DNA of 64,000 nt from Escherichia coli (GTDB lineage Bacteria; Pseudomonadota; Gammaproteobacteria; Enterobacterales; Enterobacteriaceae). The position numbers and the translations under genes are program-made. The DNA lies in NCBI RefSeq assembly GCF_024502345.1, contig NZ_JALDNN010000001.1, one strand, 5' to 3'. Under the pieces are notes generated by a model, which worked only from the letters and a program-made list of their open reading frames with translations, ran no database searches and was not told the origin of the DNA. Positions 11,522 to 12,882 of this stretch are shown piece by piece; position 1 is the stretch's first letter; the number at the start of each line of letters is the position of its first letter.

Positions 11522-12028
11522 ACCACCCCCACAAGTTCCGTCGTCACGCGGCCTCGCCTGAGGAAGTTCTTGCAAGACTTTGCAAGATATTGCGCCTAAT
11601 ATGCCAAAAGTCAAGAGTCAACATCCAGCGATCTGCTGGCCGATTGATGTGACTCAAATCTTCAAGGACGGTATGCCAGGGCGGGCCGGTCCGGCGCAGG
11701 GGACGGTGGGTTGATCGGGACCTTGCGGGCGCCGCCCACGGCCGCAGATCAAACACCGATCCTCACGTTGTAACCGAGCGCCCGCAGCCCCTTGCTCGTG
11801 CGCATGTTCCTTGGCGGAAACTCGTCTGGGCGCGCCCAGCCGACGATTTCCCCGAGGCTGCTCAGGCCAATGTGCGGAATTGCCCAGTCGTCGCTGCGGA
11901 TCGCGTTCCAGAGTCGGGCCGAAAAACCTCCGTTGCCCCAGACAACGTAGTTCAACAGTATCCGTCCTGCCAACACACCTTCCCGACACCGCCGCCGAAG
12001 GCCATGGCCCATCAAGCGGATTTTCCAT

Positions 12029-12399
12029 GCCCCCTCAGCGCCGTACCTACAGCAAATCTTTCAAGGCCCAGGTCATTCAGGAGTGTTCTGAACCCGGTGC
12101 CTCCATCGCAAACATCGCCTTGGGCTACAGCCTCAATGCCAACCTCGTCCACAAATGGATTCGGCTGCATACCCAGAAAACCACGGCTATCCAGCCAGCG
12201 TTCATCCCGTTGCCTTCTCAAATGCTCGGCGCGGGATCGCATGCTCAAGTGCGCTGCTGCGATCATGAGTTTGATCCAGTCGGCCCGTAATAATGGGCAC
12301 GATCCGTATGCCTATCTCAAGGATGTGCTGACACGGTTGCCGACGCAGCGGGCGAGTGAGATTGCAGAGCTGCTGCCGCATAGGTGGCATCCGGCATAG
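12029..12399 (+). mobile_element. IS66-family remnant: OrfA-like HTH fragment fused to a TnpC C-terminal fragment (internally deleted)
   Basis: RRTYSKSFKAQVIQE...NANLVHKWIR transposase-HTH pattern; separate frame ends ...GHDPYAYLKDVLTRLPTQRASEIAELLPHRWHPA like the IS66 TnpC C-terminus; central transposase region absent. Confidence 0.6.
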
Positions 12400-12639
12400 T
12401 CGCGCAAGACGGTCTGCCCGCACGCTTACGTTCAACAGCTCAAGCACCGTCCGCCCTTCGCGGGATCGTTGCCGCCAGAGCCACACGCCGAACTTTTCCA
12501 CCTTGTCGTCGCCGGCCTGCGGTCAGTCAGGCAAGCCCAGGTGCTTGTTTTCCTGCTTGATCGCGTGGTCTCGGATCGCGTGCACCCGGGAAACGGCATC
12601 CACGAACTGCCACCATCTCTTAGCTTGGCGGGGTCAAGC

Positions 12640-12800
12640 CAGCCGGGATGCCCGGACGGTTACGCTGGTCCGCGCCCAGTTGCAGCACCAAGGTCGGCCG
12701 CAGTGATGAAGCGGGTCTTGATGCCGCACTGCGCCGCCCGATAGCGCAGTGCGATGGCCAGATGCGTCTTGCCGACTCCCAAGGGGCCTATATCGCCTTG
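12640..12800 (-). mobile_element. IS21-family IstB (transposition helper ATPase) fragment
   Basis: Minus-strand translation gives [34 protein letters not shown] (IstB Walker A region), then the frame breaks. Confidence 0.55.
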
Positions 12801-12882
12801 GCACGGCTCCGGGCAGTTTCGGGGAGGCTGCACGCAGTGCGCGACAAGATGTATCTCAGCCGAACTGCGGTGTATTCTGCAA

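Follow-up and report, generated by a model that had tools for sequence, protein, structure and literature searches.

Remains of an IS66-family element inside a PLD-like gene, and of an IS21-family istB, between an LHR2-type heat-resistance locus and the tns genes of a Tn7-like transposon in Escherichia coli

The window analyzed here is a stretch of 64,000 nucleotides of Escherichia coli DNA (contig NZ_JALDNN010000001.1 of NCBI RefSeq assembly GCF_024502345.1), and the interval in question, positions 11,620 to 12,882, separates a heat-resistance locus from the tns genes of the Tn7-like transposon that carries it as cargo (Table 1). The locus is of the LHR2 type: positions 5604-11291 are 98.7% and positions 11559-20626 are 96.2% identical to the LHR2 of pFAM21805 (NZ_KY416992.1; Boll et al., 2017, PMC5383660), and its hth, shsp and clpK genes show only 81-88% identity to those of LHR1-type loci. 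Copies of the region from 11200 to 13200 with 100% identity occur on several E. coli chromosomes and plasmids in RefSeq, among them strain ABWA45 and a plasmid of strain 873.10. All five tns ORFs are intact in the window copy. The interval lies beyond the last tns gene and outside the backbone homology, which stops inside the 3′ end of tnsE, at 12901 (the last codons of the gene) in a related Tn7-like element on a P. aeruginosa plasmid (L012) and at 12951 in one on a K. quasipneumoniae plasmid (L013). The cargo of these two relatives is different, namely a class 1 integron and oxidative-stress genes, respectively. Just past tnsA, at 20500-21000, the G+C content falls from about 0.57 to 0.40, a drop that marks the right-hand end of the Tn7-like element. 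In the otherwise near-identical locus of E. coli C 236-04A (L001) about 1.56 kb is missing across the tnsD/tnsC boundary (window 15413-16970) and tnsA is split, so that this copy of the Tn7-like element is probably immobile.

Table 1. Features of the interval and of the genes on its two sides (positions in the window).
Feature	Position	Strand	Details and basis
clpK	7688-10597	minus	
sHSP20 gene	10635-11243	minus	
small HTH_17 gene	11240-11520	minus	
non-coding spacer, LHR promoter region to orfX stop	11620-11748		
orfX, 3′ segment	11749-11957	minus	last 68 codons and stop (11749-11751); tblastn of P0002, P0003 and P0022, alignment, PGAP
left copy of target duplication	11950-11957		GTTCAACA, 8 bp; single copy at the L006 empty site
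IS66-family element, internally deleted	11958-12429	plus	472 bp
left inverted repeat	from 11958		GTATCCGTCC...
tnpA	starts 12027		homology to ~12245
deletion junction	~12246-12252		ungapped comparison
TnpC tail	~12250-12399		
right inverted repeat	ends 12429		...GCACGCTTAC
right copy of target duplication	12430-12437		GTTCAACA, 8 bp
orfX, middle segment	12438-12609	minus	residues 58 to ~115 of the 183-aa P0002; tblastn
unplaced 53-bp piece	12610-12662		Tn7-like context only
IS21-family istB fragment, Walker-A region	12663-12791	minus	Pfam positions 98-140 of 238; one frameshifting indel
91-bp piece from the istB fragment to the tnsE stop	12792-12882		outside the Tn7-like backbone
tnsE	12883-14505	minus	last backbone gene before the cargo
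tnsE, tnsD, tnsC, tnsB, tnsA of the Tn7-like transposon	12883-20506	minus	

In a first-pass annotation of this DNA the interval was described as a graveyard of insertion sequences. The remains of IS66 and IS21 that it named are borne out, but the anatomy is more orderly than the word suggests and includes a disrupted gene, here called orfX, and a spacer. The helix-turn-helix fragment of an IS66-type OrfA matches Pfam HTH_Tnp_1 with 31.9 bits (cut-off 24.1; E = 1.6e-7) and the C-terminal tail of an IS66 TnpC matches DDE_Tnp_IS66_C with 63 bits across all 39 positions of the model (cut-off 30; E = 2.9e-17). The Walker-A fragment of an IS21 IstB, which lies on the minus strand and opposite to the plus-strand IS66 parts as had been noted, matches IstB_IS21 with 36.6 bits (cut-off 24.1; E = 4.6e-9). 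Its frame is indeed broken, and joining the sequence across the frameshift lifts the score to 45.4 bits (E = 9e-12). The NCBIfam names of the three pieces are IS66-like accessory protein TnpA (positions 1-65 of 113), IS66 family transposase (positions 351-387 of 387) and IS21-like helper ATPase IstB; against these full-length models the truncated fragments score 68.2 (cut-off 74), 28.2 (cut-off 180) and 53.7 (cut-off 300), and it is because of the truncation that the IS66 scores stay below their cut-offs. The same pieces are annotated by RefSeq/PGAP in the identical E. coli locus, as ‘transposase’, as ‘transposase domain-containing protein, missing N-terminus’ and as ‘ATP-binding protein, missing N- and C-terminus’. 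The debris is of a familiar kind, and since PGAP lists its pieces as a transposase and pseudogenes, the observation is already contained in public annotation. One could argue that such similarities arise by chance from ORFs in GC-rich DNA, and the G+C content of the interval is in fact high. This is the only point in favor of an explanation that can be given practically no credence, as the E-values (1.6e-7, 2.9e-17 and 9e-12) all belong to matches past curated cut-offs, the DNA is 76-81% identical to annotated IS genes, and an exact empty site exists; on these grounds we consider it refuted.

The IS66-family element has kept both of its ends. Residual inverted repeats had been proposed as a guide to the order of events, and for IS66 both terminal inverted repeats were found together with an 8-bp target duplication, GTTCAACA, at 11950-11957 and 12430-12437. 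The right end, on the reverse complement, is GTAAGCGTGCGGGC and the left end is GTATCCGTCCTGCC. A tip of the GTAAGCG type is typical of IS66 terminal inverted repeats, and we take the right end GCACGCTTAC at 12429 to be such a tip. The left end from 11958 (GTATCCGTCCTGCCAACACACCTTCCCGAC) is identical at 23 of 30 positions, by hand count, to the left end of the intact, annotated IS66 element of a P. aeruginosa plasmid (L005), and the two ends of the shell agree with each other at 12 of 22 positions, also counted by hand; this comparison covers the left end and the canonical tip motif, the right repeats of L004 (see below) and L005 not having been located by eye. In metagenome contig L006 an exact empty site is found, where the left flank runs straight into the right flank with one GTTCAACA between them.

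For both halves of the shell the nearest intact relative found is a single tnpA-tnpB-tnpC element on the P. coronafaciens plasmid NZ_CP046443.1 (L004), which is 77% identical over 12014-12214 and 81% identical over 12253-12381; in that element the two regions are 1.96 kb apart. The claim that the central transposase region is deleted is upheld by this comparison, in which ~1.96 kb of IS66 interior is gone: of tnpA about 73 codons are left, of tnpC the last ~49 codons, and tnpB is lost completely. The described fusion of TnpA to TnpC exists at the DNA level but not as a reading frame, as the tnpA ORF (12027-12290) crosses the junction at ~12246-12252 in a frame other than that of the TnpC tail, which ends at 12399. 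The shell resembles the IS66 family (with a TnpA of the ISRel24 type) in its GTAAGCG-type repeats, its 8-bp duplication, the HTH N-terminus of TnpA, the ‘IS66 C-terminal element’ of TnpC and the order and orientation of these parts. It differs from the family in lacking tnpB, the DDE catalytic region and the C-terminus of TnpA (the missing ~1.96 kb), in its left tip, which is GTATCCG and not GTAAGCG, and in being only 77-81% identical to the nearest intact IS66 found. It is a derivative of an IS66 family member and not an autonomous member. Since it combines terminal repeats, a target duplication, a match to one single element and an exact empty site, the shell arose from a normal IS66-family insertion and has lost its interior. 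The first-pass view that past insertions and deletions are recorded here is supported by the same features, namely the IS66 ends, the target duplication and the empty site, and these events can be put in order. On an Azotobacter plasmid (L010, 3713-4951) an ORF annotated as ‘IS110 family transposase’ opens with an IS66 TnpA-like HTH sequence, MQRRSYSKAFKAQVVQEC..., and is probably an IS110 element that inserted into an IS66 tnpA and was merged with it by annotation.

With its short length, its two preserved IS ends and its target duplication, the shell resembles the internal-deletion derivatives of insertion sequences and MITEs, and it can be asked whether the 472 bp are a live, MITE-like non-autonomous element that is moved in trans by a full-length IS66 relative. 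Both inverted repeats and a perfect 8-bp duplication are what such an element would have, and IS66-family elements coexist on the same plasmids. Unlike MITEs, the shell is seen at one site only and gives no sign of amplification or mobilization. Matches covering at least 80% of the shell are listed for 117 (in one tally 125) E. coli genomes and for 1,074 records of plasmids, and all of those listed overlap the same annotated gene pair; in every locus fetched (L001, L002, L011, L015, L016 and L017) the shell sits at the identical orfX site; no second insertion site was seen among these listed matches and fetched loci. Together with ends that are only 12/22 identical to each other, this makes a live element very improbable.

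The 381 bp on the two sides of the shell (11749-11957 and 12438-12609) are neither IS66 nor IS21 and belong to orfX, a truncated, IS-disrupted gene of a PLD-like family that is absent from the first-pass account of the interval. As the shell came in by simple insertion with an intact 8-bp target duplication, its flanks are still contiguous, and when the shell and one copy of the duplication are removed in silico a continuous minus-strand orfX frame results. Read from 12609 to 12438 and on from 11957 to 11749, this frame corresponds in tblastn to residues 58-183 of a 183-aa homologue, that is, to the last ~126 codons. It contains an in-frame TGA at 12523-12525, and nothing of orfX upstream of the 12438-12609 segment remains. 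Uninterrupted homologues are 53-91% identical and have a strongly conserved C-terminal motif. In the family members P0105-P0110 the motif LGE..GW.RP..PPRN.RT.K is invariant.

A profile search of 1.84 billion representative proteins found that complete members of the orfX family have ~450-460 aa and that the remnant region corresponds to their C-terminal ~190 residues. The N-terminal part of these full-length relatives matches the PLD-like family PF13091 (PLDc_2). In a 50%-identity library the family has 457 representatives at E<=1e-3. Two other views of orfX were considered and rejected: that the 183-aa homologues are full length, because the representative search gave ~455-aa members, and that orfX is a downstream IstB or another IS protein, because it has uninterrupted non-IS homologues and full-length relatives with a PLD domain. 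The C-terminal domain has no sequence match in Pfam, PADLOC or the PDB, and its AlphaFold model is all-helical and reasonably confident (mean pLDDT 77), with no PDB structure matched by Foldseek at an E-value under 0.9. The family appears to be an uncharacterized one of ~455 aa, with an N-terminal PLD-like (HKD) part and a predicted helical C-terminal domain of ~190 aa.

To the left of orfX lies a spacer of which 89 bp (11660-11748) differ in every lineage compared, with conserved flanks on both sides, a per-segment identity of 58-65% and no BLAST match. The RNA fold of the spacer is no better than that of shuffled sequences (z = 0.38), an Rfam scan of 11200-13000 at E<=1 gave nothing, no sigma-70 promoter match was found in the interval, and terminator-like hairpins occur in it at the chance rate. 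Upstream of the HTH gene, at 11570-11593 and 11611-11625, there are short direct repeats, TTGCAAGAC(T)TTGCAAGATA and AGTCAAGAGTCAA, which differ little among LHR1, LHR2 and metagenomic copies and could act as operator or promoter elements for the locus. In L011 (E. coli TC24) and L017 (pFAM21805) there are deletions equivalent to window positions 11405-11525 and 11292-11558, by which the small HTH gene and the promoter region ahead of shsp-clpK are lost in part or entirely; these deletions in two LHR2 lineages suggest that the first gene of the locus is dispensable or has been lost in some carriers.

When the window is compared with LHR1-type loci, hth, shsp and clpK are 81-88% identical, the promoter region 69-74% and the spacer ~58-65%, and to the right of 11749 the identity is 96-100%, with a sharp step near this position. 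The IS66-free contig L006 has a promoter of the window type (95.6%) and a more distant orfX (91.8%). Since the dead flank is 96-100% identical and the heat-resistance genes only 81-88%, the simplest reading of the step is that the two locus types may have recombined within the orfX flank that they share. A further speculation, which we regard as unlikely as a whole, is that orfX, as the ancestral neighbor of the locus, belongs to a family with a PLD/HKD nuclease-like N-terminal domain and a mobile-element function (for example in defence or DNA processing), and that its shared remnant now serves as a homology tract for the exchange of LHR1 and LHR2 cores; it is the step from 81-88% to 96-100% at ~11749 that suggests an exchange of this kind.

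The orfX::mini-IS66 module is not restricted to the Tn7-like setting, as it accompanies the heat-resistance locus with 96-100% identity in at least two further contexts. It is found with LHR1 at the mhp locus on the chromosome of E. coli NCTC122 and of many further strains, where the homology ends at 12544 at an IS256-family element, and in more than 1,000 Klebsiella plasmids, where it is mostly cut at 12342, before any tns sequence. It is also present in the LHR2 of pFAM21805. Acinetobacter plasmids keep the flank only to 11949 and contig L006 keeps it to 12479; the full flank to 12609, followed by the 53-bp piece, the IstB fragment and the 91-bp piece, occurs only with tnsE (in the window, in the Klebsiella locus L002, in E. 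coli TC24 and in pFAM21805). The right-hand breakpoints form a nested series at 11949, 12342, 12479, 12544 and 12609, and because truncations in different contexts are nested in this way, orfX was probably the original neighbor of the heat-resistance locus. In an Acinetobacter plasmid (L014, 6299/6300) the homology stops at 11949/11950, exactly at the outer border of the IS66 target duplication, either by coincidence or perhaps at a shared breakage hotspot. Some copies are eroded further: TC24 has lost 12130-12440, and others stop at element positions 172, 182, 302 or 385. The distribution indicates that the IS66 insertion and its internal deletion took place before the locus spread into these settings.

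It had been suggested that the debris may mark where the locus was captured. For the IS66 remnant this does not hold, because the module also travels with the locus in non-Tn7 contexts; it predates the Tn7-like setting and is independent of it. For the remaining 273 bp (12610-12882) the suggestion is possible, as this block is confined to the Tn7-like context and the Tn7-specific junction can lie only within 12610-12900. The only outside match of the 53-bp piece is a 55-bp segment of an Azotobacter plasmid with 85.5% identity, the 3′ end of a 77-aa ORF, and the piece is 100% conserved in the Klebsiella locus L002; the 91-bp piece was searched and no match was found. The istB fragment between them (129 bp) is 76% identical over 128-129 bp, with one indel, to the istB of ISKpn7, the nearest member of the IS21 family, and it matches the IstB_IS21 profile. 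It is unlike an IS21 istB in that only ~43 of ~250 codons are left, with a frameshift, and in that istA, terminal repeats and a target duplication are missing. Neither homology to istA nor any meaningful flanking repeat, inverted or direct, was found around 12663-12791, and the repeat search for residual IS21 ends or longer inverted repeats gave only short pairs at chance level.

One option is that this block is a scar left when the heat-resistance locus was brought into the Tn7-like transposon, where an IS21-family element beside tnsE would have provided one end of a recombination or deletion. Such a scar would add to the explanation preferred here and not exclude it. The position of the block is compatible with this option, as it lies exactly between the end of the backbone homology (12901) and the locus-linked flank (12609); it is present only where tnsE is present, in 36 of 36 E. 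coli genomes with this tnsE, and neither the mhp locus nor the common Klebsiella contexts contain it. A state before capture, with this Tn7-like element and no IstB block, was not found among these 36 genomes. However, plain deletions after unrelated insertions fit the structure equally well, and what is left is 129 bp from the inside of istB, neither edge of which is an IS end; as IS21 ends and a target duplication are missing, a role of IS21 in the junction is not demonstrable. We therefore regard the scar as possible but rather doubtful.

Based on these comparisons, the interval is best explained as inert debris at the tnsE-proximal cargo edge of a Tn7-like transposon with an LHR2-type locus, to which we give a probability of roughly 0.9. 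The nested orfX truncations suggest that the heat-resistance locus at first stood beside a ~455-aa PLD-like orfX with the same direction of transcription. An IS66-family element then entered orfX, near codon 120 as numbered in the 183-aa homologue, with duplication of GTTCAACA, as the empty site and the duplication attest. The ~1.96 kb of interior would have been lost from this element, leaving the 472-bp shell with both ends; the deletion itself is seen in the comparison with L004, and its place after the insertion is the probable order. The locus with its orfX::mini-IS66 flank next entered several settings, in each of which orfX is cut at another position. In the Tn7-like element the flank is cut at 12609 and joined to tnsE through the 273-bp scrap that includes 129 bp of istB, and the scrap may be the residue of further insertions and deletions.

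There is no sign that anything in the interval would function or move. The DDE core, tnpB, istA and most of istB are gone, orfX has lost its catalytic PLD half and has acquired a stop, and other lineages have lost further pieces and still keep the locus. Substitutions between lineages are not biased towards synonymous ones in counts that are too small for a real selection test: 3 synonymous against 5 non-synonymous in orfX and 2 against 2-5 in the tnpA fragment. A different possibility is that the HTH-only TnpA fragment has been kept as a small regulator that binds DNA and controls, for instance, transposition or the heat-resistance operon next to it. Its ORF of 87 aa (12027-12290) is intact and might still confer DNA binding, is annotated in RefSeq as the protein ‘transposase’ and is widely conserved (~97.5% identity). 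Yet this identity equals that of the surrounding dead DNA, several lineages have a shortened ORF or none and still keep the locus, the few substitutions just given do not favor synonymous changes, and the last 22 residues are out-of-frame read-through; the chance that such a regulator exists is slight. The annotated 88-aa ‘hypothetical protein’ (11749-12015) is composed of the last 68 codons of orfX and ~19 codons from the IS66 left end, and it is, like the 87-aa ‘transposase’, an artefactual ORF.

In the literature, LHR1, LHR2 and tLST are described as ‘flanked by mobile elements’, among which IS5, IS3 and Tn7 elements are named, and a systematic analysis is said not to exist (PMC4563881, PMC5383660, PMC8290217). 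The interval belongs to these flanks and is of the LHR2 type. These papers do not dissect the flank, and the anatomy given here is a detail that goes beyond them; in the published text on LHR/tLST that was searched there is no mention of an IS66 shell inside the remnant of a PLD-like gene, of a module common to LHR1 and LHR2, or of orfX cuts that are nested by context.

Taken alone, the finding is of little importance, as IS remnants are to be expected beside a heat-resistance locus and appear both in RefSeq annotation and in the literature. The dissection nevertheless exposes the 88-aa ‘hypothetical protein’ and the 87-aa ‘transposase’ as artefacts of annotation, and it narrows the search for the Tn7 capture junction to 12610-12900. 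The junctions of the module and its nested breakpoints can be used as lineage markers for the movement of LHR1 and LHR2 among chromosomes, plasmids and the Tn7-like element.
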